Assembly: GCA_004524535.1 (NCBI GenBank)
Contig: SDNY01000030.1
Span: forward strand, 1 to 33,534
Length of the DNA: 33,534 nt
Direction: 5' to 3'
Origin: Promethearchaeota archaeon
Lineage (GTDB): Archaea > Asgardarchaeota > Lokiarchaeia > Sigyniarchaeales > SOKP01
The notes beneath the pieces are model-generated. The model had not been told where the DNA came from. It saw only the letters and a list, made by a program, of their open reading frames with translations, and searched no databases. Position 1 is the first letter of the stretch. Each line of letters begins with the position of its first letter. The translations under genes were made by a program, and so were the position numbers. Positions 5,182-33,534 of the stretch are shown piece by piece.

Positions 5182-5943
5182 ATGGACCAATCAACTCAAC
5201 TTGCCGGGTTACTTATTTTAATTTCAGTATGTTTTGTGATCATTTTAAGCGTTTTCGTTTTACATATTGCGATCAAGCGAAAAAATAAGTTACTTTACGC
5301 ATTCTGTTTATTTATGTTATTTTTAAATACACCTTGGATTCCAAGCGCTTTTGGATATTTGTATTGGCTCATCACTGGAAAGATATTTGCTTATCAAATT
5401 TATATTTTATTGGGCACAATGGGCATCCCTATTGCATTTTTAACTTGGTTCTATATTTACACTTCATTATTACATCCACATTGGAAAAAATATGTTTTAA
5501 TCAGCATTGGGATATATTCAATAATCTTTTATGTATATGTGTTTTATTTTTTATTTTTTGCCCCAGGTGCGCCAATAGATTATTTGATTGGAATTAAAAA
5601 AACTGAGTTAGATATTGAATATAGGGTGTTCGTCCTAATTTATATAGCATCTCTTCTTATTATTGGCGCTCCCACATTTTTACATTTTGCTATTGCATCA
5701 ATAAGAACAAAGGATGATCCAAAAATTCAATGGAGAGGTAGATTTATCTTAATATCATTAATACTGTTTATGATCGGTGCTCCTATAGATGCTTTATTTA
5801 CCCCTGATCCAATATTTTTAGTGGGAATTAGAATAATTTTATTATTGACGGCTTTATTTTTCTATATGGGATTTGTAATGCCCGATTGGGTAAAAAAACT
5901 CCTAAAATTGGAGATGGAAGAACACCCAACGCCAACAAGTTGA
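5182..5943 (+). CDS. Stand-alone 7-TM membrane protein, copy 2 (tandem paralog)
   Basis: Aligns end to end with 4236..5012; near-identical C-terminus. Confidence 0.85.
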   Translation: MDQSTQLAGLLILISVCFVIILSVFVLHIAIKRKNKLLYAFCLFMLFLNTPWIPSAFGYLYWLITGKIFAYQIYILLGTMGIPIAFLTWFYIYTSLLHPHWKKYVLISIGIYSIIFYVYVFYFLFFAPGAPIDYLIGIKKTELDIEYRVFVLIYIASLLIIGAPTFLHFAIASIRTKDDPKIQWRGRFILISLILFMIGAPIDALFTPDPIFLVGIRIILLLTALFFYMGFVMPDWVKKLLKLEMEEHPTPTS

Positions 5944-11411: not shown

Positions 11412-12308
11412 ATGAAATTATTACGAACACCCGACGAAAGATTTGAAAATCTCCCTGATTTTCCTTATAAACCCAATTATCTGGAAGTAGATAATATCAG
11501 AATTCACTATATAGATGAAGGACCAAAAGACGCCGAAGTTATTTTACTAATGCATGGTGAACCCTCTTGGTCTTTTTTATACAGATATATGATTCCCATT
11601 TTTGTGAAAGCCGGCTATAGAGTCCTTGCGCCAGATTTAGTAGGATTTGGTCGTTCGGATAAACCTACTGAACAAAGCGACCATACTTACCGTAAACAAG
11701 TAGAATGGATAACAAAATGGATGAAACTACTTGATCTTCAAAATATTACGTTATTTTGCCAAGATTGGGGATCTTTAATAGGATTAAGAGTTGCTATTGA
11801 AAATCAGGAACGATTTAAAAGAATTGTATTATCAAATGGAGGATTACCCACAGGTGCGCAAAGCATGTCCAAAGCTTTTTTACGATGGCGTGAATTTTCT
11901 AGGACGGCTCCTAAATTTGACATTAAACGTATAATCCAAGGTGGGACATTCAACAAATTGTCGAAAGATGTTTTAAGAGGATACGATGCTCCATTCCCTG
12001 ATGACACTTACAAAGCGGGGGCGCGAATCATGCCCTCTTTGGTCCCAATTAGTAAAGATGATCCAGAGTTCGAACCAAATACTAGCGCATGGGAACAATT
12101 CCAAAAATGGGAAAAACCATTTTTAACAGCATTTTCAGATAAAGATCCGATCACAGCAGGAGGATACATACCTTGGCAAAAACTTGTTCCAGGTGCTCAG
12201 GGACAACCCCACGCGACGATTAAAGACGCCTCCCATTTTGTACAAGAGGATAAAGGTCCTGAACTGGCTAATGTTATCATAGAATTTATGAAAAATAATC
12301 CAAAATAA
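11412..12308 (+). CDS. Haloalkane dehalogenase family alpha/beta hydrolase
   Basis: LRTPDERF N-terminus, HGEPSWS, PDLVGFGRSDKP, nucleophile QDWG, HFVQEDKG. Confidence 0.92.
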   Translation: MKLLRTPDERFENLPDFPYKPNYLEVDNIRIHYIDEGPKDAEVILLMHGEPSWSFLYRYMIPIFVKAGYRVLAPDLVGFGRSDKPTEQSDHTYRKQVEWITKWMKLLDLQNITLFCQDWGSLIGLRVAIENQERFKRIVLSNGGLPTGAQSMSKAFLRWREFSRTAPKFDIKRIIQGGTFNKLSKDVLRGYDAPFPDDTYKAGARIMPSLVPISKDDPEFEPNTSAWEQFQKWEKPFLTAFSDKDPITAGGYIPWQKLVPGAQGQPHATIKDASHFVQEDKGPELANVIIEFMKNNPK

Positions 12309-14088: not shown

Positions 14089-14475
14089 ATGCATAATGAG
14101 GAAGTCAAACTATTATTTCAAAGATCCAATAATTTTTTAGAAACCGCTAAATTTAGACTTAATAAGAAAGATTGGGATCTTACATGTTTTTTAGCTGAAC
14201 AAGCTGCTCAGTTATATCTTAAAGCAACAATACTTGAATTAAGTGGTGAAATTCCAAAAATTCACTCATTAAGACAATTAATTGCAATACTCTCCCAACT
14301 AATTAATATTCAACTAAAATTTGAAAGAAAAGATTTATTATTCCTCGAAAATGCATATCTAAACTCAAGGTATTTTGATTTTTCTTATGAAGAAGAAGAT
14401 GCCAAAGAAGCAATTAAAATTGTAGAAGAGGTAATTAAAGAAATTGACACAGTTAGAGAAAATTTTAGAAATTAA
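14089..14475 (+). CDS. HEPN domain protein
   Basis: CFLAEQAAQLYLKA, PKIHSL..L, YLNSRY; overlaps the MNT gene. Confidence 0.9.
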   Translation: MHNEEVKLLFQRSNNFLETAKFRLNKKDWDLTCFLAEQAAQLYLKATILELSGEIPKIHSLRQLIAILSQLINIQLKFERKDLLFLENAYLNSRYFDFSYEEEDAKEAIKIVEEVIKEIDTVRENFRN

Positions 14476-14797
14476 AAAGAAAAGAGCTAATATTTTGAGA
14501 AATTTTCAAGATTATCTCAATATTATTGTAAAAAAATCTCATGAAGTTCTTAATAATCCAAAAATATATCTTTTTGGAAGTGCCCTCCAAAATAAATTAG
14601 TTGCTTCCAGCGATATCGATATTTTAATTGTTGCTGAAGTTCCTAAAAAACATTTATTAAGAACAAAATTGTTAGCCGAAATAGAAGAGAAATCTAAATT
14701 ACCATTATATCATCCTTTTGATATCCATTTAATTGATTTCTATGAATTGAAGAAATGGAAGAAAATCTATAAATTAAAATTAAAGAAGATCAATTAA
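14444..14797 (+). CDS. Minimal nucleotidyltransferase (MNT)
   Basis: YLFGS...SDIDILI, FDIH; paired with HEPN. Confidence 0.9.
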   Translation: MTQLEKILEIKKKRANILRNFQDYLNIIVKKSHEVLNNPKIYLFGSALQNKLVASSDIDILIVAEVPKKHLLRTKLLAEIEEKSKLPLYHPFDIHLIDFYELKKWKKIYKLKLKKIN

Positions 14798-17953: not shown

Positions 17954-19299
17954 ACAATGCCTCCTAGTTTCTTCTCTGGACTTTTATTTTCATCAAGATC
18001 GAAAAAAGTAGAAAGAGTTGTTTGATTTCGACCATTTATTATTAAGAAAGGATCAGCCCTTTTTAACACTACACCGACAGATTTTAGATCCTCTCGACTT
18101 TTAAACTTAATTTTTTGTGATTGCAAATTAATTATTCGTTTAGCAGAAATAGGACCAATTCCAGGCACTCTGATGAGTTCTTGGTAAGATGCGTGGTTAG
18201 GATCAACAAGGCCATGCTCTTTAAAATAATGCCTCGCAAAATGGATCTTTGGGTCTCCCGTGGGCAAATTGCCTTCCTCTGTTAAGACATCTTTTAAATC
18301 TCTTAATTTATAATGATAAATTCGCAATAGCCAATCGCTTTGATATAACCGATGTTCTCTTGCTAATGACTCTGCCTTTTTGTTTGCTAATGGTGTTCCT
18401 TTGATCGGAGTGAAAGAAGAAAAATAGGCGCGCCGCAAATCGACCGCTTTATATTGCCAATCGATTCTGTTAAGAAGATCCCAATCAGTTTCATTTTCAG
18501 CCGCACCTACTACAAATTGAGTGGTTTGACCGCTATTGAGAATTGGCGCTCCATCCCATCGAAATTTTTTATATCCATTCTCTCTTCGATCCTTAATCAT
18601 TTTTTCTTGGAATTCCAACTGATTATCTTGTTTCAAATCTTTCATGACTTTCAGGACTTCCTCATTATGTTTAAGTCGAATCTGCTTTAACCAACGTTGA
18701 CGTGTAATAATATCATTTTTAAAATCTTTCTGTTCCGCGATTTCAGAGAGATATCCTTTAGTAGAGGCTTCTGTATTAACTGAAATACGATCGGAAAGAG
18801 CTATCGCCTCTTTTAAAAGATGCTGACTTAACCCAGGTAAACATTTAAAATGAATATATCCCTGAAAATGATATTTATTTCGGAGCAATCTAACCGCTTC
18901 AAGCATCTCTTCGGTCGTTTGATCAGCACTACCACATACTCCCGAACTAATGAATATACCCTCCACCACATTCATCGAATAGAGTTTCATAAAGGTGCGT
19001 GCATACTCTTCGGGGGTAAAACTCACCTTTTGCTTACAATTATGAGAAAAACAATAGCTACAATTGTAGATACACTTATTAGTATAAAGCGTTTTAAAAA
19101 GACTCATGCAGCGCCCATCAGGCGTATAACTGTGGCATATCCCAGCACTAGCTGTAGCTCCAATCCAGTTTTTTGAATCTCCAAAAAGTGTTGGATATTT
19201 TTTCGTACGACTGGACGCAGTACTCGCACAAATATCATATTTTGAATTCCTTCCTAAGATCCGTATCTTTTCTAAAGTAGACGGCAATTTATTAATCAA
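17950..19299 (-). CDS. Putative DNA modification/repair radical SAM protein with helix-hairpin-helix (TIGR03916-like)
   Basis: KYDICAS, GICHSYTPDGRC.SLFK, CIYNCSYC, FQGYIHFK, GQTTQFVVGA, REHRLYQSDWLLRIY, HhH RVPGIGPISA. Confidence 0.92.
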   Translation of the reverse strand: MINKLPSTLEKIRILGRNSKYDICASTASSRTKKYPTLFGDSKNWIGATASAGICHSYTPDGRCMSLFKTLYTNKCIYNCSYCFSHNCKQKVSFTPEEYARTFMKLYSMNVVEGIFISSGVCGSADQTTEEMLEAVRLLRNKYHFQGYIHFKCLPGLSQHLLKEAIALSDRISVNTEASTKGYLSEIAEQKDFKNDIITRQRWLKQIRLKHNEEVLKVMKDLKQDNQLEFQEKMIKDRRENGYKKFRWDGAPILNSGQTTQFVVGAAENETDWDLLNRIDWQYKAVDLRRAYFSSFTPIKGTPLANKKAESLAREHRLYQSDWLLRIYHYKLRDLKDVLTEEGNLPTGDPKIHFARHYFKEHGLVDPNHASYQELIRVPGIGPISAKRIINLQSQKIKFKSREDLKSVGVVLKRADPFLIINGRNQTTLSTFFDLDENKSPEKKLGGIV

Positions 19300-22165: not shown

Positions 22166-22475
22166 AAATTAAAATAATATTTATAAATTTAAAAATCCGG
22201 TAAATTTTTTCTTTAGTTAATTCTTCTGAAGGTCATTTATAGTTTTTTTTTTATTATTCATTTTTAATTAAAGTATTAATGTAATTTATACACTCATATA
22301 GCAAATATATTGAATTATCTTAGTAGGATTAATAAATAGAAAAAAGAGGTAATTTTAGAGAAACTATTTATTGTTATTTTTATATTATTATTTTGACTTA
22401 ATTAAGGAAATCAAAAGATCTTGGGAAAAAAAATTATGGCTCATAAAAATAATGTAAATAATACATTAACGCACC

Positions 22476-23030
22476 GTGGTGAACGAAATCAATCAAAATA
22501 ACGGAAAGGACTCCGCTGATGCGCAAGAATTTATACAAACATTAACAAACACTATTAAGACTCTGGAAAAAACAATTTCCGTCTTAAATAAGAAATTAAA
22601 AGATGCTGAAAACGAAATTAAAACGCTCAGAGAAGAAAATAGGAATCTGGAAACTAAAGGAGTTAATGCTAGTGAATTAATAAAAGATAATGAAATGTAT
22701 AAAATGAAAATTGCTGAATTAGAAAGAGAAATCAAAGAGTACAAGAGAAATCAAGAACCATATGAAGCTGAAAAAGCAAAATCAGAAAAGGTTACCTCAG
22801 TCACTAAAGCTTCTGATATTGTGCCAAAAAAACCGTCTGAAGTAATCAAGGAGCAAGTGTTAGGAGTCTCAGAAAGCACTATTGCAACCAGGAGAAAATG
22901 CCCTAATTGTGGTAATGCTAATCCTGCCTCAATCCATGAAAAAGTTGATAAAACGAGAATTATCATAGAATCCCCAAGAATGTATGGTAAGAAATATATA
23001 TGCGGCGAATGCGGGATCGAGTGGATATAA
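22476..23030 (+). CDS. Coiled-coil + C-terminal Zn-ribbon protein
   Basis: RRKCPNCGN...DKTRII...MYGKKYICGECGIEW, paralogous to the 2471..4087 C-terminus; GTG start uncertain. Confidence 0.82.
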   Translation: MVNEINQNNGKDSADAQEFIQTLTNTIKTLEKTISVLNKKLKDAENEIKTLREENRNLETKGVNASELIKDNEMYKMKIAELEREIKEYKRNQEPYEAEKAKSEKVTSVTKASDIVPKKPSEVIKEQVLGVSESTIATRRKCPNCGNANPASIHEKVDKTRIIIESPRMYGKKYICGECGIEWI

Positions 23031-23087
23031 ATAAGATAATCAATAAAAAGAATACCGATAAGTCTTTATTTAAGAAATATCTAATTT

Positions 23088-23093
23088 TTTATA
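23088..23093 (+). promoter_or_regulatory. TATA-like box of GTPase copy 1 (copy 2 at 23863-23868)
   Basis: TTTTTTATAAGTGTAAATTTTAA conserved at identical spacing from both ATGs. Confidence 0.5.
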
Positions 23094-23133
23094 AGTGTAA
23101 ATTTTAAAAATAATATTATACTGTGTAAAATAA

Positions 23134-23688
23134 ATGAGTCAACCTGGTTTAATCTTTAAAATAATTATTGGTGGTGATGGTGGTGTAGGTAAAACTACCA
23201 TGCTACACCGCTATGTTAATAATGAATTCATATTTGATTCGAAAATGACGATCGGTACGGATATTCTTAATAAAATGATCACATTAAAAGAGGGCCCAGT
23301 CTGCGCATTACAATTATGGGACTTTGGCGGACAAGAAAGGTTCAGATTCATTCTCGATAGCTTTGTAAAAGGGGCTGCGGGAGCATTTTTAATGTTTGAT
23401 TTAACAGTTTTTATTAGTTTTAATAATTTACCTAAATGGCTAGATCTTGTCCGTAATGAGGATCCCACACTCCCTATTCTTCTTATCGGATCTAAATATG
23501 ATTTAATAGATTCTATCACAGTTGATGATGATCTTGTTCGGGAGTTTGTCGAAGACAATAATATATGCGGATATTGTAAAGTCTCCTCGAAAACGGGATA
23601 TAACGTCAATATAGCATTTGAATCATTAATAAGCACTATCATAGATTATAGACACATAACCATAGTAGATCAATCCATGGAAGTTTGA
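23134..23688 (+). CDS. Rab-like small GTPase (Ras superfamily), copy 1
   Basis: G1 GDGGVGKT, G2 TIG, G3 WDFGGQERF, G4 SKYD, G5 SSK. Confidence 0.95.
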   Translation: MSQPGLIFKIIIGGDGGVGKTTMLHRYVNNEFIFDSKMTIGTDILNKMITLKEGPVCALQLWDFGGQERFRFILDSFVKGAAGAFLMFDLTVFISFNNLPKWLDLVRNEDPTLPILLIGSKYDLIDSITVDDDLVREFVEDNNICGYCKVSSKTGYNVNIAFESLISTIIDYRHITIVDQSMEV

Positions 23689-23752
23689 ACTACTCCTCCC
23701 TAAAAGAAAGTGTTTTCTTGAGCAATTATTTTAAAATCAAAGGTTAAAAATT

Positions 23753-23812
23753 TTATCCTTCAGAGAAGGCGTCTCGCAAGGAAATGCCCTTCTCTTACAT
23801 CTTCTTACTTAT
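23753..23812 (-). pseudogene. Degenerate copy of the last 60 bp of gene 24528..25232
   Basis: TCAGAGAAGGCGTCTC...GGAAATG..CTTCTCT.ACAT.TTCTTACTTAT matches 24528-24587. Confidence 0.85.
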
Positions 23813-23908
23813 ATAAAAATAATACGATTAGTTCATTGAAGTAAATATAAAATATTTAATTTTTTATAAGTGTAAATTTTAATAATTAAATTATACTGTT
23901 TAAATTCA

Positions 23909-24463
23909 ATGATTCAACCTAGTTTAATCTTTAAAATAATTATTGGTGGTGATGGTGGAGTAGGTAAAACTACTATGCTACACCGCTATGTTAATGGTAG
24001 ATTCTTATTTGATACGAAGATGACCATCGGTACGGATATTTTTCATAAAATACTCACATTAAAAGAGGGTCCCGTCTGCTCATTACAATTATGGGACTTT
24101 GGCGGACAAGAAAGGTTCAGATTCATCCTCGATAGTTTTTTAAAAGGCGCTGCGGGTGCATTTTTAATGTTTGATTTAACAAACTATATCAGTTTTCATA
24201 ATTTACCTAAATGGCTAAATATTGTCCGTAAAGATGATCCCACACTCCCTATTCTTCTTCTAGGATCTAAATATGATTTAGTAGATTCTATCACAGTTGA
24301 TGATGATCTTGTTTCTGAGTTTGTCGAAGACAATAATATAAGTGGATATTGTAAAGTCTCCTCGAAAACGGGCTATAACATCAATTTTGTATTTGAATCA
24401 TTAATAGGCACTATCATAGATTATAGACACATAACCATAGTAGATCAATCCATGGAAGTTTGA
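23909..24463 (+). CDS. Rab-like small GTPase, copy 2
   Basis: Same length (184 aa) and motifs as copy 1; identical C-terminus. Confidence 0.95.
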   Translation: MIQPSLIFKIIIGGDGGVGKTTMLHRYVNGRFLFDTKMTIGTDIFHKILTLKEGPVCSLQLWDFGGQERFRFILDSFLKGAAGAFLMFDLTNYISFHNLPKWLNIVRKDDPTLPILLLGSKYDLVDSITVDDDLVSEFVEDNNISGYCKVSSKTGYNINFVFESLIGTIIDYRHITIVDQSMEV

Positions 24464-24527
24464 CCTACTCCTCCCTAAAAGAAAGTGTTTTCTTGAGCAA
24501 TTATTTTAAAATCAAAGGTAAAAAATT

Positions 24528-25232
24528 TTACCTATCAGAGAAGGCGTCTCTCACGGAAATGGGCTTCTCTAACATATTCTTACTTATTTCTTTTGCTCGT
24601 CGCTCGATTACACTCTTTTTTTGGACCACATTTCTCTGATACTTTTTATATCGCCTAATTGCGATATTTTTCCATTTCTTTTTCCACGCGGGAAACCCGG
24701 TCTTGACAAACCTCTCGCGATTTGGAAAGTCTCGGCATACCCAATCAAACAAGACGAAATATCTTTGGATACCTGCCTCTTTGGTCAGATTCCTTGAAGA
24801 TACGCCCAGTTTTCTGAGATGCTGAATCAATTTACCTTCCACCGCATCCTGAAGTTTACCTTCTACAATTGCGGGTTCGTAATATATATCGTTCTCGTGA
24901 AAATATTCCCTCACCGGATCGAAACAATTACCCCTGCACAGAAGGATACGATCTCCTTTAGTATGATTAAATGCTCTAAGAGCATCGATAGTTATCTTTA
25001 CTATATGCTCTTTCACCTTATCATCGCTCTTATTTTCTTCATTATAGAGCCCTACGGGAATTGATCTGAAGATTATCCTCTTGCTCTCCGTGTCTCGAAA
25101 GCCGATAAAGGCATCTCCAACTAAATCCCCCGTCCCAGCATCGTCAATTTCTATTGTTCTTCCCTTCCACTCGCTGGGATTATTAGTGGATTGGCACGAC
25201 TCCCCGTCGTGATTCTCTTTTTCTGTCTTCAT
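24528..25232 (-). CDS. Uncharacterised protein with an RNase HII-like N-terminal acidic motif
   Basis: IEIDDAGTGDLVG resembles RNase HII G(I/V)DEAGRGP..G; basic C-terminal helix. Confidence 0.7.
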   Translation of the reverse strand: MKTEKENHDGESCQSTNNPSEWKGRTIEIDDAGTGDLVGDAFIGFRDTESKRIIFRSIPVGLYNEENKSDDKVKEHIVKITIDALRAFNHTKGDRILLCRGNCFDPVREYFHENDIYYEPAIVEGKLQDAVEGKLIQHLRKLGVSSRNLTKEAGIQRYFVLFDWVCRDFPNRERFVKTGFPAWKKKWKNIAIRRYKKYQRNVVQKKSVIERRAKEISKNMLEKPISVRDAFSDR

Positions 25233-25257
25233 TATATATTTAAACGTTTTCTCTCAT

Positions 25258-25306
25258 AAATAGATTATGATTTTACTCCATAATAAATTTTAATGAGATT
25301 TTCTAT
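25258..25306 (+). repeat. Junction repeat R1 (copies 25258-25306, 26154-26174, 27145-27184)
   Basis: 25267-25306 vs 27145-27184 match 38/40; 25258-25278 vs 26154-26174 match 20/21 (hand alignment). Confidence 0.85.
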
Positions 25307-25312
25307 TAAGAT

Positions 25313-25342
25313 TATTTAAATTTTTCAATCAAATGTTTAAAC
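25313..25342 (+). repeat. R2: copy of the promoter/start region of the LbH gene (27502-27531)
   Basis: TATTTAAATTT(T/A)TCA(A/C)TCAAATGTTTAAAC, 28/30. Confidence 0.8.
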
Positions 25343-25501
25343 GGCTTACTTTTTGGAATTGTATATTTCTTTTCAATAGAATAATATTATGGAGATATAT
25401 ATGTAAGAATTTTTATAATGGTTAAATTTAAATAATCAACTAATGTATTTTATCTCTAATACTTTATTTTAAAAAAAATAATTTATAAAAGGGAAAAAGA
25501 A

Positions 25502-25900
25502 ATGATTTTGCAAGCAGGAATGTCTACTTTAATGTTATGGACCTTCATCGTCGGAATTATCGTAAGCATTATTGTTTTTATTATTGGAGTTTTAATTACG
25601 AGATGGTGGGCTGGAAAAAAAGGTTGGAGCGAAGAATTAAAGACCGCACTAATATTAAACATATTCTGGCTAGTTATTAATATTGTGCTTGGATGGTTAT
25701 TGTGGGGTATTATTGCTCTGATAATAAATATAGTAGTCGGTGGATGGTTAGCAGCGAAACTCTATGAAAAGGAATTAAAAGATGGCATTATTTTCGTTAT
25801 AGTTGTATTAATAATACTATTTGTTATCTTTATAATTCTCGTTATAATTCTTTCAATAATTATAGTAGCCGCCGTAGTAGGAGCAGCATATGCAATGTGA
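25502..25900 (+). CDS. Hydrophobic membrane protein (about 4 TM)
   Basis: 132 aa, mostly I/V/L/F/W. Confidence 0.8.
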   Translation: MILQAGMSTLMLWTFIVGIIVSIIVFIIGVLITRWWAGKKGWSEELKTALILNIFWLVINIVLGWLLWGIIALIINIVVGGWLAAKLYEKELKDGIIFVIVVLIILFVIFIILVIILSIIIVAAVVGAAYAM

Positions 25901-25994
25901 TCCTCAATTCTAAGTAAAGAATTAAATTAATCTATTAAATTTCCTTTTTTTTTTTCTATATTTTTTTCTATAAATAACCTATACCTAACATACG

Positions 25995-26025
25995 ATTCAA
26001 GAGTAACTAAAGGTAAATAGGCGAT
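25995..26025 (-). repeat. R3: 31-bp fragment of the creatininase coding sequence (33456-33486)
   Basis: ATTCAAGAGT..CTAAAGGTAAATAGGC.AT, 28/31. Confidence 0.8.
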
Positions 26026-26048
26026 AACAAAAAATAGATTAAAGGTTC

Positions 26049-26162
26049 CTACCTTTTTTTAGTTTTAGCGCCTTCTTGATCATTTTTGCTTAGCTTAAGA
26101 AAACCATCAGATAATACACCCAACAAAATAGTTAGGGAAATAGCAATAGCAAGAAATAGATT
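26049..26162 (-). pseudogene. R4: start-less 3' fragment of membrane gene 28851..29267
   Basis: Translates NLFLAIAISLTILLGVLSDGFLKLSKNDQEGAKTKKR*; in-frame stop upstream, no ATG. Confidence 0.9.
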
Positions 26163-26274
26163 ATGATTTTTCTCAAGAGGTTAATTAAAAATAAAATCCT
26201 CAAAGTTTTCTACAAAATATAAAATTACAAATAGGCAATATTTTAATGATTAATCTTAAATAATAATGATCTAA

Positions 26275-26715
26275 CTATTTTAAATCATTAATGAACTTAA
26301 TCTTAACAATAAGAGATAATTTTTTAAATACTTTCTCAATTTCTACTTCTTTTTTCATATAGATTGGAATATCTAATAATTTTGCAGTTGCCAGACCATA
26401 ACAATCAGCAAGTGAAATAGCAAAATCACACTTTAAGTGAGCAGCTTCATCTCTCAAATCTTCTTCGGAGTAGATGGCAAAATCTTTTAAAAGTTCAGAT
26501 ACTATTTTGATTGCTTTTCCATATCCTTTACGTCGGCATAAAATATACTTCAGTTCAGTATCCACAATGGGCGCTATGTAAAACTTTTTAATTTCTTCAT
26601 TTGAAAGTACTTTTTGAAATACTTTTTTACCTAAAGGAGTATCCTCTAAATACTCTAATAAGACGGAGGTATCAACAACTATTGAATCATTTTGTGAATC
26701 TTTCTTCTCGATCAA
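26275..26715 (-). CDS. vapC: PIN-domain toxin (VapC-like)
   Basis: VVDTSV, TELKY, ISLADCY.LATA. Confidence 0.88.
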   Translation of the reverse strand: MIEKKDSQNDSIVVDTSVLLEYLEDTPLGKKVFQKVLSNEEIKKFYIAPIVDTELKYILCRRKGYGKAIKIVSELLKDFAIYSEEDLRDEAAHLKCDFAISLADCYGLATAKLLDIPIYMKKEVEIEKVFKKLSLIVKIKFINDLK

Positions 26716-26956
26716 GCTCGTTTCTCCTCATTTCTTTAAATATGGATGTTCCTTCTTTAGGTTTAAGGATTCCTTGAAATTGCTTTATATTATTAAGAAA
26801 ATTCTCTTTCTTTACTTCATATCCCTTTTCTTTAACTAAGAATTCAATGGCCTCATCATAGGTAACTCTTCGCCCCCATTTCTTCTCAAGTTTGTTTATA
26901 AGTTCAAATAATTTATTTTTGGTTCTTTCTGAAATCTGAATTGTAGTATTAGCCAT
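26687..26956 (-). CDS. vapB: Antitoxin with RHH-like N-terminus (VapB-like)
   Basis: TTIQIS.RTK.KL...TYDEAI..L; overlaps the PIN gene. Confidence 0.8.
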   Translation of the reverse strand: MANTTIQISERTKNKLFELINKLEKKWGRRVTYDEAIEFLVKEKGYEVKKENFLNNIKQFQGILKPKEGTSIFKEMRRNELDREERFTK

Positions 26957-26977
26957 AAATTACTCATCTGTTTTTAT

Positions 26978-27007
26978 TTATTATAGTGATTATAATCATT
27001 ATAATAA
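26978..27007. promoter_or_regulatory. 30-bp near-perfect palindrome, probable VapBC operator
   Basis: TTATTATAGTGATTATAATCATTATAATAA, one mismatched pair, 22-51 bp upstream of the antitoxin ATG. Confidence 0.65.
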
Positions 27008-27222
27008 TTATAGATTTTTGATATATTTATTTCTTTATTTTTTATGTCCTAAAAGTATTTTTATTTTATATTTAGGGCTTGGTTGTGTAAATTTAGCAAA
27101 TCTTATTTTTTACATTATAAAAAAATTAATCATGGTAATTTATAATGATTTTACTCAATACTAAATTTTAATGAGATTTTCTATAGATGAGCTAAAAGAA
27201 GGATTTGATAAAAACAACATTG

Positions 27223-27244
27223 AATCTCTAATTATTTAGAGATT
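27223..27244. terminator. Hairpin AATCTCTAA-TTAT-TTAGAGATT
   Basis: 9-bp stem just beyond the stop of 27251..27460; terminator role is inferred. Confidence 0.35.
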
Positions 27245-27250
27245 TTTGAA

Positions 27251-27460
27251 TTAGAACTTAAGAAACATAAGAATAAATATAAAAATTCCTAATCCTACTA
27301 ATAAAAGAAGAATTATTCGAAACATATTATCTGAGGGCGAACTTTTTTGACTTAAATTCAAGCGAACACAAGCAGAACATATCCCATTGAAATTATCAAA
27401 CTGGTGTTCCGAAATTACTTCTCCACAATTTTTACAATATTGCATTTTTTCTATTTTCAC
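27251..27460 (-). CDS. Small Zn-finger protein with C-terminal TM anchor
   Basis: CKNCG...CSAC plus a hydrophobic tail; ATG 27445 is an alternative start. Confidence 0.7.
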   Translation of the reverse strand: MKIEKMQYCKNCGEVISEHQFDNFNGICSACVRLNLSQKSSPSDNMFRIILLLLVGLGIFIFILMFLKF

Positions 27461-27521
27461 TCACTTTTTAATTGAATCAATTATCATATTAATTTAAGGA
27501 CTATTTAAATTTATCACTCAA

Positions 27522-28799
27522 ATGTTTAAACATCTTAAAATGTTCAATAAAATTGAAGATTGGCTCAAAGAACAACAAAAAAAGTTTCAACAATGGAAAG
27601 AAGAACAAGAACGACGTCAAAGACAATGGAAGAACAAAACGGATAAATTGATCCCACCTAGTTTAAAAAAACTTGTGGAAATGTATCCATTAATCAAAAA
27701 TATGGAATTTTATAACCCATTATTGATCAATCCTGAAGAAGAAAGTGAATTTTCACGGAATTTGGACGATAAAAATTACATAAAAGAAATACATGCAGAA
27801 TTGATTGAAAAGTTATATAAAAATTCAATTATTAGCCGTGATGGTGAAAATGGAAGAAAAATTCGACCAGCAACTACAGAAGAATTAAAAGAGTATCATA
27901 ATAAAAAGACCGACAAAACTAAAATTTGGAGAATAAAGGATGCCTTTAATATTATAAGTTCGTATATTGGGCTCCCGGAAATCAAAGCTCATCATTTAAA
28001 AAGTATGGGTGCAAAATTGGGTTCAAAAGTGTATCTTTCCTCTAGCAATGTTGTAGATCCTTATTTTCCAGAGTTAGTTGACATTGGTGATAATGTCGTT
28101 ATGGGAATGGGCGCCTCAATTTTTTGTCATGAATTTATTGATGGGGAATTATTCGTGGGTGAAGTTAAAATCGGAAAGAATTGTCTCATTGGTTTTGGTT
28201 CCATTGTCTTACCTGGCACTCAAATGGGAGATAATTCTATTTTAACTCCAGGTTTTTTAACATCGGATTTAAAAGAAAATACAATGGCGAAAGGACTTGA
28301 TGGCTCCATTAGGATTGAAAAAAATGTAAATAAAAATTTACCAAAAAGAAGAGTTGAAAGCCTAGATTTTACACTACATGATTATATGAGCAAATTAATA
28401 TTTCCGAAAGGCGATTATTTCAAGACCATGTTTAATAATATGTATATCGAATGGCAAAAATCGCCATTAGTAAGTCAGAGTTTTAGACAAACTCTTTTAA
28501 GAAAAGCGGGAGTTAACATAGGAAAAAGTGTTAAAATTGAAGATAACGTTCATTTTGACACCTATTATCCTGAAAAAATTACAATTGAAGAAGGTGTTAT
28601 AATAAAAAGCGGTGCAACGATCGTTACTCACGAAGGAACTGTCTCTAATTTTAGAACTGGGAATGTAGAAATTGGAAAAAACGTAGTTATTGAATCTGGT
28701 GCAAAATTATTACCTGGAGTGAAAATTGGAAAGAACTCAAAAATCTTTGCCTACGCTTTTGTTGATCGTGATATTCCTCCAGACTCTGAGTTTTTCTGA
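27522..28799 (+). CDS. Acyltransferase-like protein with two left-handed beta-helix (hexapeptide) domains
   Basis: Two repeats of G..(L/I)G..V...D.Y(F/Y)PE...I...V.......I..HE......G.V.IGKN..I...LPG. ATG 27540 may be the true start. Confidence 0.85.
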   Translation: MFKHLKMFNKIEDWLKEQQKKFQQWKEEQERRQRQWKNKTDKLIPPSLKKLVEMYPLIKNMEFYNPLLINPEEESEFSRNLDDKNYIKEIHAELIEKLYKNSIISRDGENGRKIRPATTEELKEYHNKKTDKTKIWRIKDAFNIISSYIGLPEIKAHHLKSMGAKLGSKVYLSSSNVVDPYFPELVDIGDNVVMGMGASIFCHEFIDGELFVGEVKIGKNCLIGFGSIVLPGTQMGDNSILTPGFLTSDLKENTMAKGLDGSIRIEKNVNKNLPKRRVESLDFTLHDYMSKLIFPKGDYFKTMFNNMYIEWQKSPLVSQSFRQTLLRKAGVNIGKSVKIEDNVHFDTYYPEKITIEEGVIIKSGATIVTHEGTVSNFRTGNVEIGKNVVIESGAKLLPGVKIGKNSKIFAYAFVDRDIPPDSEFF

Positions 28800-28850
28800 C
28801 ATAATCCCTCACTCTTTTTGTTTATTTAAAAAAAAATAAATTAGAAGTTC

Positions 28851-29267
28851 CTAACTTTCTTTAGTTTTAGCACCTTCTTGATCGTTTTTGCTTAGCTTAA
28901 GAAAACCTCCAGATAACACACCCAACAATATAGTAAGGGAAATGGCGATAGCAAGTAAAAACAGATTCCCCGGCACGAGTAATGCCCAACATACCCAAAC
29001 AACTGCTATTGAAGCACCTAACAGATCGCCAACTAATCTTTTATAATTATACAAATCTTCCTTGTTTTCTTCATCTTTTTTGCTTAGCTTAAGAAAACCA
29101 TCAGATAATACACCCAACAAGATAGTAAGGGAAATAGCAACAGCGAGTAACAGCAAAACAGATCCAATCATAACAACAACGAGAAAAACAAACATTATCC
29201 AAACAACTGCTACAGCTGCACCCAACACTTCGCCAACTAATCTTTTATAATTATACAAATCTTTCAC
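28851..29267 (-). CDS. Membrane protein made of two tandem 2-TM units
   Basis: DLYNYKRLVG...AISLTILLGVLS.GFLKLSK occurs twice; GTG start after GGAGA. Confidence 0.82.
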   Translation of the reverse strand: MKDLYNYKRLVGEVLGAAVAVVWIMFVFLVVVMIGSVLLLLAVAISLTILLGVLSDGFLKLSKKDEENKEDLYNYKRLVGDLLGASIAVVWVCWALLVPGNLFLLAIAISLTILLGVLSGGFLKLSKNDQEGAKTKES

Positions 29268-29391
29268 TCTCCAATTTTTTTTCTATTTCTTTATTATTTA
29301 TAATCCTTAAAAAAGTGTCATATTACTATATAGAGAAAATACACATATTTTTTTATATTGATTATAATAAAAAAAAAGAGAATAAAAGTAC

Positions 29392-29428
29392 TCATGGTAA
29401 AAAGGCCAATAAATCTCTTGTTAGATTT
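29392..29428 (-). pseudogene. R5: degenerate copy of the 3' end of gene 31849..32295 (shorter third copy at 27116-27138)
   Basis: TCATGGTAAAAAGG.CAATA..TCTC.TGTTA, 31/37 vs 31849-31885. Confidence 0.75.
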
Positions 29429-30950
29429 ATTTAGTTGCCTCAGGTATTAAAATTACAAAATTACATCCCTTCGAATAATTACCTTTTACCCTATCTTCAA
29501 TCCATATCTTCCCCTCAAAGAGATCAATAATTTTTTTTACAAGCGACAATCCTAACCCCATTCCTAATATGCTCCTATCATAGCGGATTTCTTTTTGAAA
29601 TAATCCCTTTTTTCTCTTATCATCTATTCCTTTTCCGTTATCCATTAATTCAATTTTTAAGTAATTTTTGTTTTTTAAGTGTTCCCTTGATATTTTTGTA
29701 ATGATCTCTAATGGTCTATTTTCATTATGTTTTACTGCATTCATTAAAATATTCTCAAACACTTCTCCTATAAGATCGTTTGCATAAGCATAGAAATGGT
29801 TCTCCCTATATTCTACTTTAATGGTTAAATCTCTTTCTTGAAATGCGTTCTCAACATGTTTTATCGTTTCGTTTAAAATATGACTAATTTCAATGGGTAA
29901 AAATGTTTTTTCTAATTCTTCAATTTCAGAAAACTTAATTACATTTGAAACTAAATTTGCCCCATCTATAAGTTGGTTCTCAATTAATTTAATTTTTTTA
30001 TTAAGATCTTCATATTTTTCAGAAGATTTAATCAACTTTCGACAACTCCCCACTCCAAATAAGATGACCTGTAAAAGATTATTAATATCGTGAGCAATCA
30101 GGTCTTTAAGAACATTAGCTTGATTATAGGCTTCTTTAAATTTATTCTTTGATATATTTAATTTTCTGAATAAAAGATTCACAGGATTTTTGAGAGCAAT
30201 CTGAATCATGGCTTTATAGAGGAAATAAAATGCAATGATTTTAAAAACATGACCAATTAAGTTTGGGAGTTCATACGCGCTTAAATATAGGGTAAAACAG
30301 AATTCTGAAATGATTAAAGCCACTAAAAAAGCGATAATCAAATAATAAATGTTTCTACTAAATTCCGCTCTCGTTCTATGAATTAAAATAATCGCAACGA
30401 TTAAAATCAAGATGATAATATATTCGCTTATAATTTTAAATGGTGTCAACCCAGATCCTTCAATGAATGTATCGGGAAATAATCCTATAAATATTATAAT
30501 TATGAAAATGCCAGAGATAATACTATAAATCACCAACAAAATGCTCGGTTTCACTTTTCTATTAATTGACCAAATCCCAAGTAAGATTGAAAATGCTTGC
30601 ATGAATCTGGTAACAATCCATAATTGAGATGCAAGATTGGTATCTCCCCCATAAATTATCCCCATTCCTGGATAAGCTAAGGTATGGATAAAATCAATCA
30701 TCGCAATAAAAAATGAGGATATCCCGAGTACTAAAAAAAATGTACTATCAATCTCCTTTCTCATCGTCCAGGCAATCACAAATATTACAGAAGCTATCAC
30801 AATACTATAAAGCTCTGCAATAGTATGAAAAAGTAGATAATTGTAAAGCCTTGTTAAAATTACTCCAATTAAAATTAAACTAAAAAGACCACTCTCTAAA
30901 AAAGCCTTCTTAACAATAATTAATTTTCTCATGGAATCAAGCCTTAACAA
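29427..30950 (-). CDS. Sensor histidine kinase with MASE3-type membrane domain
   Basis: YNYLLFHTIAE..S, DFIHTLAYPGM, H-box AHDINN, N-box ENILMNAVKH, DNGKGI, GMGLGLSLV. ATG 30932 is an alternative start. Confidence 0.92.
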   Translation of the reverse strand: MLRLDSMRKLIIVKKAFLESGLFSLILIGVILTRLYNYLLFHTIAELYSIVIASVIFVIAWTMRKEIDSTFFLVLGISSFFIAMIDFIHTLAYPGMGIIYGGDTNLASQLWIVTRFMQAFSILLGIWSINRKVKPSILLVIYSIISGIFIIIIFIGLFPDTFIEGSGLTPFKIISEYIIILILIVAIILIHRTRAEFSRNIYYLIIAFLVALIISEFCFTLYLSAYELPNLIGHVFKIIAFYFLYKAMIQIALKNPVNLLFRKLNISKNKFKEAYNQANVLKDLIAHDINNLLQVILFGVGSCRKLIKSSEKYEDLNKKIKLIENQLIDGANLVSNVIKFSEIEELEKTFLPIEISHILNETIKHVENAFQERDLTIKVEYRENHFYAYANDLIGEVFENILMNAVKHNENRPLEIITKISREHLKNKNYLKIELMDNGKGIDDKRKKGLFQKEIRYDRSILGMGLGLSLVKKIIDLFEGKIWIEDRVKGNYSKGCNFVILIPEATK

Positions 30951-31155
30951 TTAAGAGAAGGATTTATGATAATTTTTATATTTGTTAAATATAACCAATA
31001 TAATTAAAATAAATATATATACATACTTGTATAAGATTATATAAAATATTTATCCTCCCCACCTGCTATCAATTATAATTATTCTATTTTTCACTCCCCT
31101 CCTTTCACTTATTCCAAGAAATAAAAAAGGGGATTATAAAATAGGAACCTAAAAA

Positions 31156-31722
31156 TTAATTATTACAATAAGCTACAAATTTCTGAGGATCTCTAGCATA
31201 TCCCCTCTTATCAATTCCGCCACATTGTTTTAATACCTCATTTGGAATGGGATTATCCCCAATTCTTAGCTCAATAAGAGAATCAAGCGATCCAAGACCT
31301 TCTATAGTTCTTATTACATTTCCATATAAATTGAGCTTCTTGAGATTCTTCAAATTGCTAAGACCTTGAATTTTCTCAATTCTATTATCCTCTAACGATA
31401 AGTTTTCTAACGCTTTCAAATGATCTAACTCTTTAATTTCCTTAATTCTATTTTCAGAAAGATAAAGTATCCGTAAATTAATTAATTTATCTAATTTAGC
31501 GATCTCTTCTATATTATTCCCATATAAATTTAATTTCTCCAAATTATGGCACATATCCAAGTTCTTAATCGTTGAAATACGGTTATTAAAAAGATTTAGA
31601 CTTTTTAAATTTGGCAGGCTTTCTAACCCCTTGATTTGCGCAATATCCTCTATTTGCATATTACCCAAATATAAGCTCTCTTTATCTACTTCTATTCTCT
31701 GATTATTCACTTCAACAAACAT
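31156..31722 (-). CDS. SDS22-like leucine-rich repeat protein
   Basis: 22-aa LxxLxLxxNxIxxIxxLxxLxx repeats (about 6). Confidence 0.92.
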   Translation of the reverse strand: MFVEVNNQRIEVDKESLYLGNMQIEDIAQIKGLESLPNLKSLNLFNNRISTIKNLDMCHNLEKLNLYGNNIEEIAKLDKLINLRILYLSENRIKEIKELDHLKALENLSLEDNRIEKIQGLSNLKNLKKLNLYGNVIRTIEGLGSLDSLIELRIGDNPIPNEVLKQCGGIDKRGYARDPQKFVAYCNN

Positions 31723-31848
31723 GATCTATATAAATGGCTTCTATTTATACTTAGAAATACCTTAACTTAAAAAAATTAAGTGCTTAAACATCAAATTATA
31801 TCCTTTCCTTTTTCAATATATCATTCCTACTTATATAAAAAAAATGAA

Positions 31849-32295
31849 TCATGGTAAAAAGGTCAATATCTCTCGTGTTAAATCTCCAATAAGAACTTTA
31901 GCTTGTTTTAAAGAATAGCCTCGCATTTTGTAATCTTCAACAAGGGGATTTAATTGTCCTTCACTTAATCTCGATATCAATAACACTGCTCCAAGACATT
32001 CGCCAAACACCTTTTCAACCAATTCGCAAGTAAAACTTCCATCTTCTTCTTTTTTCCATTCACGAGAATACCCCTTAATTAAAGCAGGAGACCATGGGAC
32101 TGGTGTCCCCAAAAGATCACTTAATATATCTGCCTTCATATATTTATCCCAAATAAATACTAGATCTTTCTTATCCACCTCATTAGGGCTAATTTCTTGT
32201 TCAGGAACATGAACTATTGAAGTTGCATAAGGCTGGTAAAAACCAAACCAACACATCGTTAAAGGCTGCTCTTCCTCCTCAGTCAATTTATCCAC
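31849..32295 (-). CDS. Hypothetical protein
   Basis: 148-aa ORF, GTG start, no motif recognised. Confidence 0.7.
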   Translation of the reverse strand: MDKLTEEEEQPLTMCWFGFYQPYATSIVHVPEQEISPNEVDKKDLVFIWDKYMKADILSDLLGTPVPWSPALIKGYSREWKKEEDGSFTCELVEKVFGECLGAVLLISRLSEGQLNPLVEDYKMRGYSLKQAKVLIGDLTREILTFLP

Positions 32296-32418
32296 ACCTG
32301 TAAGTTTTCATCATTTTTATATCATTGTTTTAATAAATATTAAATCCAAAAAAATTTAAATAATTATAATGTGTAGTTATAAAATAAAAACCTAAAAAAA
32401 AGCGAGCGAATCGAAAGA

Positions 32419-32793
32419 ATGCCTGTTTCAGATATTTTAACTTTTCCCCATTTCTGGGTCATGCTGATTGGAATAGCGCTTTTGGCACTTTCAATCATTG
32501 TAGTAACAATCCACAAACCGGAGAAATGGTTTTTATTCCATAAAACCTTCGCAGTGGCAGGAGTAATTCTTACTCTAATCGGCCTTCTTGTATTGATGGG
32601 ATTAAATTTGATTTTAATTCATGCGATTTTCGGGTTAGTTGTCATAGTCTGGTTAATTGGCGAAATATTAGGTGGCTACGTTGCGTCTAAAAAGCAGGAT
32701 AAAAATATGCGAAAAATGCACATTTTGGCTGGTCGAATAGTGTTCCTCATTGCTATAATTGTGCTGATATTCGGAATTTTAGCTTTTATCTAA
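32419..32793 (+). CDS. Minimal cytochrome b561-like 4-TM protein
   Basis: One His at the start of each TM: PHFWVM, WFLFHK, IHAIFG, MHILAGR. Confidence 0.75.
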   Translation: MPVSDILTFPHFWVMLIGIALLALSIIVVTIHKPEKWFLFHKTFAVAGVILTLIGLLVLMGLNLILIHAIFGLVVIVWLIGEILGGYVASKKQDKNMRKMHILAGRIVFLIAIIVLIFGILAFI

Positions 32794-32820
32794 TTTTTTC
32801 AATTTTTTTTTTAAGGTCTC

Positions 32821-33534
32821 TTAATTAATTTTATTTAATGTTTCTTTAAGAATTTCTGCTATTCGATCTATTTGTAACGAGATTATTCTCTTTCCCTCCT
32901 CTGAGCTTGCGAATTCACGGGGATCCTTGCCCATAAGTCCAAGTGGTTTTACATCCTTATCTTTTGGAAGATTTTCTATTTTGACGAGATCTGGTCTCAA
33001 AGCCATCATAAGGGATGTTTCATTTGCCGCAGCATGATCCGTTTGTATTCCAAGCCCATCTGATTCTTTATCTCGCCAGCATGTAAAAAGATCAAGCCCT
33101 AATTCACCCTTCCACTTCTTAATACCCGAATAAAAAGCCATGGTAGAGGGACCATGTCCATGGGCGACAACAATTTTAAATCCTGCTCTTTTAAGCTGTT
33201 TTAAGATTTCTTCAAGAACTTCCCTAAAAAGCCTTTTATTTACCCAATAAGCACTACCTAAAAGTTTTTGAGGGTGGTGCTCGGGATAACTATGAATATC
33301 CATCCCATAATATTCCTTTCCATCCACATCTCTTGATTTGTCGGGGCCTATAAAAAGCATTGGAAGAACAATGCCCCCCACTTTTTTCGCAAGTTCCATA
33401 AAAAATCCAGAAGATATCAATCCATCTGCTCCCAATGGCATATGCCGACCATGCCATTCAAGAGTGCCTAAAGGTAAATAGGCAATCGGAACCTTTGATA
33501 ACCGTTCTTTAAATTCCTCAGGTGTTAACTCTAC
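32821..33534 (-). CDS. Creatininase / creatinine amidohydrolase family (5' end outside window)
   Basis: Frame open to window edge: ELTPEEF...AYLPLGTLEWHGRHMPLGAD, AHGHGP, DHAAANETS. Confidence 0.92.
   Translation of the reverse strand, partial: VELTPEEFKERLSKVPIAYLPLGTLEWHGRHMPLGADGLISSGFFMELAKKVGGIVLPMLFIGPDKSRDVDGKEYYGMDIHSYPEHHPQKLLGSAYWVNKRLFREVLEEILKQLKRAGFKIVVAHGHGPSTMAFYSGIKKWKGELGLDLFTCWRDKESDGLGIQTDHAAANETSLMMALRPDLVKIENLPKDKDVKPLGLMGKDPREFASSEEGKRIISLQIDRIAEILKETLNKIN

Follow-up and report, generated by a model that had tools for sequence, protein, structure and literature searches.

A strain-variable gene interval in a Promethearchaeota genome, probably an additive island built by recombination and deletion

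The window analysed here, 33,534 bp long, is the whole of contig SDNY01000030.1 (hereafter C93) of a Promethearchaeota archaeon known from a metagenome-assembled genome (MAG; 198 contigs, 3.66 Mb, 30% GC, 4.4% contamination). Towards its right end, the interval between two conserved flanking genes, X234 on the left and p148 on the right, holds blocks of mostly unrelated genes separated by copies of short repeats (R1 to R5), and beyond p148 the end of the contig cuts a creatininase-family gene. We consider it likely, though by no means certain, that this X234-p148 interval is a flexible island that grew by addition, through illegitimate and homologous recombination plus deletion, and that no dedicated machinery was involved. 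A first reading of the sequence (the original prediction) had described a cassette-like array produced by repeated insertion or duplication at one fixed site followed by deletion, and had put it forward as a candidate for an undescribed system. The observation is confirmed by the present analysis and the interpretation is partly supported: nothing found here requires dedicated machinery, and the fallback that had been offered, ordinary duplication and decay, explains the locus once mixing of alleles between strains is added.

The repeats were evaluated by a blastn self-comparison of positions 25200-33534 against 100 dinucleotide-preserving shuffles, whose best matches reached a mean of 30.5 bits, a 95th percentile of 34.6 bits and a maximum of 37.4 bits. 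Seven real pairs lie above every shuffle (43.7-168 bits), ruling out a chance origin for R1a-c, R2, R3, R4 and R5b-c. The strongest is R4 (26025-26162 with 28827-28967, 86.5%, 168 bits; E 1e-40 in blastn against the genome), whose left copy also matches the N-terminal repeat unit of the mem138 gene (26073-26159 with 29067-29153, 90.8%, 122 bits). It is followed by R1a-R1c (25264-25306 with 27142-27184, 93%, 65.3 bits; genome E 1e-9), R2 (25306-25348 with 27494-27537, 86%, 50 bits; genome E 3e-5), R3 (25980-26025 with 33441-33486, 83%, 48.2 bits; genome E 1e-4) and R5b-R5c (29381-29426 with 31838-31883, 80%, 43.7 bits). Two copies are borderline when taken alone, namely the 21-nt R1 copy at 26154 (20 of 21 matches, 34.6 bits, 0.02 expected per window) and R5a at 27119-27138 (19 of 20 matches, 32.8 bits). 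Support for the former comes from G008, a genome of the same genus, whose X234-upstream spacer matches 26154-26196 over 43 nt (86%). The repeat coordinates originally given proved correct within a few bases. All of the repeats just listed above the shuffles are significant; the pair 27028-27056 and 29284-29316, at 30.1 bits, falls within the shuffle range and is not above chance. Likewise, the motif AAATAGATT, reported at several junctions, is present at 25258, 26032 and 26154, and these occurrences are not independent because two of the three fall in homologous R1 copies.

All repeats are in direct orientation. Their copies are 80-93% identical, and the longest exact run is 23 bases at R1, R2, R3, R5 and between R4a and R4c; one longer run, of 44 nt, is shared by R4a and the N-terminal unit of mem138. 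No copy of R1-R5 was found outside the locus at E<=1e-3 when positions 25000-33534 were compared by blastn with the 3.66-Mb genome, so that the R1 copies elsewhere that the original prediction would have counted in its favour did not materialize. The sole exception to locus-only copies is the zinc-ribbon gene, with a paralogue on contig C52 (87%). A genome-wide repeat family or a miniature inverted-repeat transposable element (MITE) was rejected, as the repeats are without other genomic copies.

Every repeat could be traced to a feature nearby (Table 1), as had been proposed for the intergenic DNA, said to be built of copies of neighbouring promoters and gene pieces; each repeat is the relic of a functional feature. 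R1 is a copy of the spacer upstream of X234. In G008, this spacer is made up of R1L (21 nt), R1M (about 96 nt) and R1R, the last being a HepT promoter. The HepT relic in R1c corresponds to G008 positions 7325-7357 (27162-27193 in the window, 85% over 33 nt), and tblastn with the HepT and MntA proteins of G008 revealed nothing convincing in the window beyond this promoter and the 11 nt that follow. R2a is an orphan promoter with the first codons (ATGTTTAAAC...) of the gene for a left-handed beta-helix (LbH) protein; R1 and R2 are 309 nt apart in copy c and abut in copy a. Part of R2 belongs to the zinc-ribbon module, because the C52 paralogue shares 27208-27515. The second copy of this module, comprising the gene and both flanking spacers, lies at C52:19966-20276 between acetyl-CoA-synthetase-like and radical SAM genes, and its likeness of 87% is measured over the open reading frame (ORF). 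R3a is about equally distant from three creatininase genes, those of the window, of G008 and of a second related genome, G005 (83-85% identity). R4a carries the end of mem138, a gene in which a unit of about 68 amino acids (aa) is itself present twice, the two copies being 79% identical in DNA. A possible mem138-end relic in G008, a single 25-nt match with E 0.02, was too weak and was not used. The units are referred to as a, b and c after their R1 copies, and the cargo of unit b, 26275..26956 (-), is by its sequence assigned to the VapBC type of toxin-antitoxin pair.

Table 1. Features of the X234-p148 interval and its right-hand neighbourhood (window coordinates)
Feature	Position	Strand	Description
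X234	24528..25232	-	234 aa, RNase H-like fold, conserved left flank; no Pfam or NCBIfam family
R1a	25258..25306	.	R1L 25258-25278 + R1R 25279-25306; middle part deleted
R2a	25306..25348	+	orphan LbH promoter + first codons; abuts R1a
mem132	25502..25900	+	small multi-pass membrane protein
R3a	25973..26025	-	creatininase-gene relic, from near the 5' end
R4a	26025..26162	-	last 37 codons of mem138 + downstream spacer; tblastn 92% aa, 37 residues
R1b	26154..26196	.	R1L + R1M, as in G008
PIN/VapC toxin	26275-26715	-	PF01850, E 2e-11
VapC upstream partner, 89 aa	26687-26956	-	29-nt overlap with toxin ORF; family search assigned none
R5a	27119..27138	-	p148 3'-end relic, 9 nt of ORF + downstream; abuts R1c
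R1c	27137..27193	.	R1L + R1R, then relic of HepT promoter + its first 11 nt
Zinc-ribbon/transmembrane protein, 69 aa	27251..27460	-	within duplicated module 27208-27515
R2c	27494-27537	+	LbH promoter + first codons
LbH gene, 425 aa	27522-28799	+	double left-handed beta-helix, acyl/acetyltransferase-like (family search)
R4c	28827.. (with mem138 to 29267)	-	intact-gene counterpart of R4a
mem138	28851-29267	-	membrane protein, two internal repeats
R5b	29381..29426	-	p148 3'-end relic, 35 nt of ORF + 11 nt downstream; abuts stop codon of histidine kinase gene
MASE3 histidine kinase (HK)	29427-30950	-	family search; HK-LRR block = 29427..31722
Leucine-rich repeat (LRR) protein	31156-31722	-	family search; part of HK-LRR block
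R5c	31838.. (with p148 to 32295)	-	3' end of intact p148
p148	31849-32295	-	conserved right flank; family search gave none
Cytochrome b561-like membrane protein	32419..32793	+	family search
Creatininase-family gene	32821..33534	-	cut by contig end; contains R3c 33434-33486

Three joints are head to tail: R3a/R4a (33486/28827), R4a/R1b (28967/R1 start) and R5a/R1c (p148 end/R1 start). At each of them a distal sequence stands directly before a proximal one, the join-point order expected of a tandem duplication, and the topology would correspond to tandem duplication or to insertion of a circularised segment. The R1Ra/R2a joint (27184/27494) is collinear and is therefore a deletion, which removed the HepT relic and the zinc-ribbon module. 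At the R4a/R1b joint the microhomology amounts to 9 nt (AAATAGATT versus AAACAGATT), and at the other joints to 1-4 nt. Units a and c are sister copies, because both have the derived R1M deletion that unit b and G008 lack; they share R1L-R1R-R2 and show complementary loss, unit a having mem132 without the zinc-ribbon and LbH genes and unit c having these two genes without mem132. Duplication or insertion followed by deletion, as in the original prediction, is the right kind of history. Neither unit b nor the HK-LRR block is matched by a sister copy in the locus.

A search of 40 related genomes with positions 22400-33534 identified only two, G008 and G005, that share enough of the flank for comparison, synteny within the genus being otherwise poor. 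The flanks of G008 are 91-94% identical to those of the window, and its gene order is X234, R1, HepT (PF01934), MntA (PF18765), R5, p148 and creatininase, so that G008 has 950 nt where the window has 6.6 kb. G005 retains a stub of X234 (127 nt, 71%) about 50 nt from the end of p148, with the creatininase gene 12 kb away, and its zinc-ribbon, R2 and LbH stretch lies on a different contig. There the order is intermediate: zinc-ribbon gene, R2, a 39-aa ORF that is the tail of mem132 (83% to window 25806-25971) and an LbH orthologue that begins at the second Met of the window gene. Six further loci were found in metagenomes with p148. One of them, L024, has the HepT-MntA cargo of G008 with a different left flank, and its break lies inside R1M, about 40 nt further in than the R1-start joints; L029 has p148, the cytochrome b561-like gene and the creatininase gene, and in L025 and L026 p148 adjoins a homologue of the window gene at 11412-12308. 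The cytochrome b561-like gene is present in L024, L029 and G005 and absent in G008.

An index named 17 sequencing runs, four of which (X1-X4) were compared with the window at a likeness of at least 90%, the run data being contigs rather than reads and joints with sides below 30 nt being ignored. In X1, the probable source, contigs of the Logan assembly cover 25173-26112 and 26097-29055 at 100% identity with an even depth of about 50, similar to the 55 at X234. This is a second assembler's support for the order, albeit from the same reads. X2, from another study, joins 25257 to 26154 with 17 shared nt and continues through VapBC to 27149; that is, it has X234-R1-VapBC without the 896-bp mem132/R3a/R4a block, and a separate low-depth contig of the same run carries mem132, so that forms with and without this block occur together. 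The X2 contig extends only 11 nt beyond the R5a/R1c joint, which is hence not independently bridged. In X3, 25277 is joined to 27527 with 135 other letters between, bringing X234-R1L close to LbH; mem138 has a single unit (joint 29025 to 29230), and the HK gene is placed 628 nt from a GTPase gene (23684 to 29425). Both X2 and X3 link the mem138 flank to p148 without HK-LRR (29389 and 29376, respectively, joined to 31847), and in X4 the LRR gene is missing, 31072 being joined to 31847 with 34 other letters between. In the relatives and in these run contigs, the ends of the indels fall on R1 and R5.

The same conserved flanks thus enclose different genes in G008, L024, X2, X3 and X4, as is characteristic of a flexible island, and a comparison of the interval across strains, which had been suggested as a check, revealed content that is not identical. 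The relatives and the run contigs also bear out a cassette-like, strain-variable array with units that start at R1 and end at R5. A single fixed site, by contrast, is not supported, or only weakly so. Two joints are indeed no more than about 9 nt apart at the R1 start, yet L024 breaks inside R1; at the other end R5a retains 9 nt of the p148 ORF and R5b 35 nt, and the R3/R4 and R1R/R2 joints lie elsewhere.

For the C93 locus, recombination without dedicated machinery is the simplest account. Strains of the population hold alternative blocks (HepT-MntA, VapBC, zinc-ribbon/LbH/mem138, HK/LRR and mem132), and several of these blocks would have been stacked head to tail in this genome, either by tandem duplication or by the joining of incoming DNA from a diverged allele. 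An incoming allele would enter by crossing over with a conserved flank through homology at one end and by an illegitimate joint, guided by microhomology, at the other. Each stacking would mark the new joint with a copy of the flank edge, R1 being derived from the X234-upstream spacer and R5 from the 3' end of p148, and later deletions would trim these copies to orphan promoters and gene stubs (R2a, R3a and R4a), with complementary loss in sister units. Between the direct repeats, whole blocks could then be lost or gained by homologous recombination, and this would produce the variation between samples. As to the order of events, a c-type allele (R1L-R1R, zinc-ribbon, R2, mem132, LbH, mem138, R5) may have come first; a VapBC allele would then have been added on the X234 side, corresponding to the state in X2, and finally a decayed c-type copy, resulting in the arrangement of the window. 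The HK-LRR block would have been joined 35 nt inside the old p148 end. What the data show are the identities of the relics, the topologies of the joints and the presence or absence of blocks in relatives and other samples; we infer both this order and the enzymology, which would be that of host recombination and repair with no dedicated recombinase. Asgard genomes are described in PMC13247210 as duplicating genes often and frequently in tandem.

No sign of a mobile-element machinery was found in the window. None of the 35 window ORFs scanned matched an integrase or transposase family, PF00589 included, so that there is no integrase gene inside an insert as in integrative elements; no inverted pair brackets a unit, and insertion sequence (IS), transposon or MITE marks are equally lacking in view of the absence of other R1-R5 copies from the genome. 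When folded as single-stranded DNA, the joints did not resemble attC sites (7 folds at 5 places, z -2.0 to +0.7), and no stable hairpin was found at them. The family scans, the folds and the inverted-repeat check thereby uphold the earlier statement that no recombinase, attC or IS ends are visible in the window. The genes of the units lie on both strands, not in the one orientation of integron cassettes. A tRNA or non-coding RNA gene as target was also considered and rejected, the locus having no tRNA gene and no Rfam match. Elsewhere in the genome, one tyrosine recombinase scored above the Pfam cut-off (contig C126), and it is presumably XerA-like because it adjoins orc1/cdc6; there was one weak match (C144). 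No serine recombinase was found in the genome search, and no IntI-type recombinase beside the array or in the genome, absences that a MAG does not prove.

The left flank gene deserves separate mention. The AlphaFold model of X234 (predicted local distance difference test score, pLDDT, 85) has an RNase H-like fold and aligned in VIA-align with archaeal RNase HII at Z 10.4 (153-162 residues) and with retroviral integrase cores at Z 9.5 (104-113 residues), a near tie; the modelled fold alone cannot separate an RNase H from an integrase-like protein. A canonical RNase HII was rejected, as X234 has no Pfam or NCBIfam match and its best hit in a PDB sequence search had E 0.96; the canonical RNase HII of the genome is encoded separately, on C98. 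X234 relatives occur at 39 loci across Promethearchaeota. In a more distant branch the neighbours are stable, a MoCF_biosynth gene standing upstream at 24 of 35 loci, and the closer orthologues have varied neighbours, some toxin-antitoxin pairs among them. Because of this family distribution and these neighbourhoods, X234 is not a typical mobile-element gene, although it may have a role in recombination. The family is uncharacterised and has an invariant E-I-D-D-x-G-T-G-D motif; a paralogue of X234 (54%) is encoded on C64.

A genome-wide scan for short (<=200 nt), local (<=12 kb) repeat pairs found 183 of 189 in direct orientation, and the 20-30 kb stretch of C93, which includes the left part of the locus, was the third-densest for such repeats. 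In 30 pairs over 19 contigs, the 3' end of an ORF has an orphan copy in intergenic DNA; the corresponding number for 5' ends is only 8. Integrase fragments were absent from 48 ORFs scanned from other arrays.

The most conspicuous of these arrays lies on contig C167 (1-19382), where a series of cassettes lies behind trpE-trpG, with copies of about 70 nt of the trpG 3' end, at least 7 in number, between them. The cassettes comprise a response regulator with a CheB/CheR kinase, a HIT gene, three ParE pairs, DUF433 with DUF5615, a VapB-like gene with a 159-aa gene, and a pyruvate formate-lyase-like gene. The right ends of the trpG relics are at the stop codon, and many of the left ends are at trpG nt 892-897, others at 600-888; with the larger fragments at 5217-5571 and 18767-19132, relic lengths range from 47 to at least 366 nt. 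One relic starts one base past a ParE stop codon. The relics are 73-89% alike, whereas the neighbouring ParE genes are only 59-61% alike in DNA (53% when shuffled) and 33-45% in protein, and since the ParE genes are thus far less alike than the relics, the cassettes do not stem from one recent tandem amplification. Like the joints of C93, the trpG-type 70-mers have no attC-like fold (z -0.3 to +1.0). A 91-nt trpG probe matched this genome 16 times and each of 40 further genomes of the family 0-3 times; the trpG array of G008 has other cassettes, apart from one shared ParE cassette that is 95% identical against 89% for its flanks, and trpG of G005 has no relics. Related trpG pieces occur on C138 (68.6-72.2 kb), C80, C133, C18 and C123, and some of C167, C138, C133 and C80 share an identical 143-nt end; the contigs concerned may be strain alternatives.

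Two further arrangements were noted. On C74 (5200-9900), the 3' end of an AMP-binding enzyme gene is present in three copies of 135-170 nt, 82-85% alike, which bracket three cassettes, namely a PIN toxin-antitoxin pair, a UPF0175/DUF3368 pair with a methyltransferase, and a ParE pair. On C126 (7449-8411), a HicA/HicB-like pair lies between 90-nt direct repeats (89%), and the one clear tyrosine recombinase of the genome is some 2.5 kb away. Passage searches in the Asgard mobile-element papers PMC8813620 and PMC11529989, supplements aside, and a literature search for toxin-antitoxin cassettes flanked by gene-end repeats yielded no description of gene-end-relic arrays, which does not prove that there is none.

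Several observations weigh against recombination without dedicated machinery as a full explanation. The joints R4a/R1b and R5a/R1c coincide within about 9 nt at the R1 start, a rare outcome because random breakpoints seldom do so, and the bias towards 3' ends (30 versus 8) is not predicted by random tandem duplication. On C167, at least 4 relics beside unrelated cassettes share their left end within 6 nt, and the relics are more alike (73-89%) than the ParE genes next to them (59-61% in DNA); repeated insertion at one site agrees with this better than one old duplication does. The R1-start coincidence, the 3'-end bias and the uniform 70-nt trpG relics are not fully explained by this account. 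Simple tandem duplication alone is insufficient, because the VapBC unit b has no sister copy; the locus must also have gained an allele from another strain. In addition, all of the comparison data are metagenome contigs, without read-level or long-read phasing.

It is because of the same three features that we keep a minor place for an att-like cassette mechanism, unlikely as we judge it to be. The units would then be mobile cassettes, integron-like or integrative-element-like, with a mimic of a host gene end as att site and a recombinase encoded elsewhere or represented by X234. More generally, there is a small chance that small toxin-antitoxin, sensor and enzyme cassettes accrete in this Asgard lineage by travelling with a copy of the last 20-70 nt of a host gene, which would be p148 at C93 and trpG or the AMP-binding gene on other contigs, or of its flanking spacer; such a portable gene end would act as att site or homology arm for adding, excising and swapping cassettes, and the agent would be host homologous recombination alone or an unrecognised recombinase, for which X234 would be a candidate. 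It would agree with this that R1 and R5 bound the units, that population indels end on them, that two joints nearly coincide, and that the RNase H-like fold of X234, at the edge of the array, can be aligned with integrase cores too (Z 9.5). So would the toxin-antitoxin cassettes of C167, C138 and C80, each followed by a trpG 3'-end copy of about 70 nt whose left ends cluster at nt 892-897 and whose right ends are at the stop codon, the ParE cassette more alike in G008 than its flanks, and the parallel on C74; integrons, mostly without integrase and with toxin-antitoxin and acetyltransferase cassettes, are moreover enriched in Asgard archaea according to PMC9668308. Against it stand the lack of an integrase in the window and the presence of only a XerA-like tyrosine recombinase in the genome, the joints and trpG 70-mers that do not fold like attC, and relic lengths that vary both for p148 (9 versus 35 nt) and for trpG (47 to at least 366 nt). 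The L024 break lies inside R1, the R3/R4 and R2 joints involve neither R1 nor R5, and these two repeats occur nowhere else in the genome; X234 belongs to a family conserved in Promethearchaeota, with a distant branch that has stable neighbours, and the cassette genes are on both strands.

The end copies could alternatively be what is left of larger, integrase-carrying elements that integrated serially into the 3' end of p148, and of trpG elsewhere, and then decayed, toxin-antitoxin pairs being kept since their loss is penalised and att copies being kept as relics. We regard this as improbable. Relics of gene 3' ends between blocks are indeed the signature of serial integration, as reported for the islands at asn tRNA genes (tDNA) of K. 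pneumoniae (PMC4891358), toxin-antitoxin pairs are over-represented among the blocks, and 3'-end relics outnumber 5'-end relics by 30 to 8; yet no integrase fragment was found in the 35 window ORFs or in the 48 ORFs of other arrays, the blocks are very compact (the C167 relic that begins one base past the ParE stop codon being an example), and R1, R2, R3 and R4 are not att-like and would need other events. Finally, an assembler might have stitched the alleles of co-existing strains serially. The MAG has 198 contigs and 4.4% contamination, several strain variants of the locus co-occur in samples, and the window is an entire contig with its end inside a gene, but such an artefact is very improbable: with copies 80-93% alike and at most 23 shared identical bases (save the one 44-nt run), the repeats are too diverged for k-mer collapse or chaining, the X1 contigs match at 100% identity and even depth (about 50 versus 55 at X234), and X2, from another study, has the R1b-VapBC part.

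The proposed recombination-driven growth can be compared with several known processes. Tandem duplication and amplification, called the accordion in bacterial and poxvirus work, leaves head-to-tail join-point scars and allows repeat-driven expansion and contraction. The distal-next-to-proximal joints, the direct repeats and the complementary loss in sister copies at C93 are like such scars; unlike accordion arrays, the C93 units are mostly unrelated genes, and at least one of them (VapBC) must have come from another allele. In homology-facilitated illegitimate recombination, reportedly described by de Vries and Wackernagel in 2002, a homologous anchor on one side acts together with a microhomology joint, and to our knowledge the process has been demonstrated only in naturally transformable bacteria. 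The microhomologies of 1-9 nt and the additions beside a conserved gene at C93 are consistent with it, and it can duplicate the edge of the anchor; for C93 the process is suggested by sequence alone.

The locus also resembles the minimal mobile elements of Neisseria (Saunders & Snyder 2002), described in PMC1797815 as conserved flanks around whole-gene cassettes that vary between strains, without recombinase or IS, exchange being presumed to occur by homologous recombination in the flanks. C93 is like these elements, and like replacement-type flexible islands, in its flanks, its varying cassettes and its lack of a recombinase. Unlike in the Neisseria elements, the alleles are stacked serially and not only swapped, R1/R5 edges and stubs remain, and the host is an uncultured archaeon without a known DNA-uptake route. 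In architecture the locus is also similar to integron arrays, which according to PMC9668308 occur in about 8% of Asgard genomes; most of these lack an integrase, and toxin-antitoxin and acetyltransferase cassettes abound in them. Clusters of attC sites lacking integron integrases (CALINs) are like C93 in having short cassettes with repeats (about 50-140 nt) between them, similar cargo and an integrase that is often off the contig; in C93, unlike in CALINs, the separators are copies of host gene ends and promoters without attC-like fold, the genes are on both strands and there is no IntI. Serial islands at the 3' ends of tDNA or other genes, such as those reported in PMC4891358, likewise have inserts separated by end copies and an intact target gene, with integrases and a fixed crossover site, neither of which was seen at C93.

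Some other features of the window lie outside the interval. To the left of X234, two Ras-family GTPase genes are arranged in tandem (23134-23688 and 23909-24463, +; proteins 85% identical); in G008 a single such gene occupies this place, and another two lie downstream of the creatininase gene. Dozens of Ras/Arf-type GTPase and LRR genes are present in the genome. A second pair of HEPN (PF05168) and nucleotidyltransferase genes is located at 14089-14797 (+).

Little is understood of the ways in which toxin-antitoxin pairs and other small accessory genes pass from one prokaryotic genome to another in the absence of transposases, and the growth of Asgard genomes bears on the origin of eukaryotes. 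The strain-variable C93 locus is probably a recombination-built cassette island that differs from known flexible islands in being additive. Together with the stronger parallels in the same genome, it offers readable joints that would record the additive growth of an island, and the public samples reveal blocks that come and go at repeats between closely related strains. Even if these joints are only scars of recombination, they provide a clear worked example for the population genomics of Asgard archaea; if the repeats did work as att sites, they would represent a new cassette system, an integron-like array without attC and IntI.

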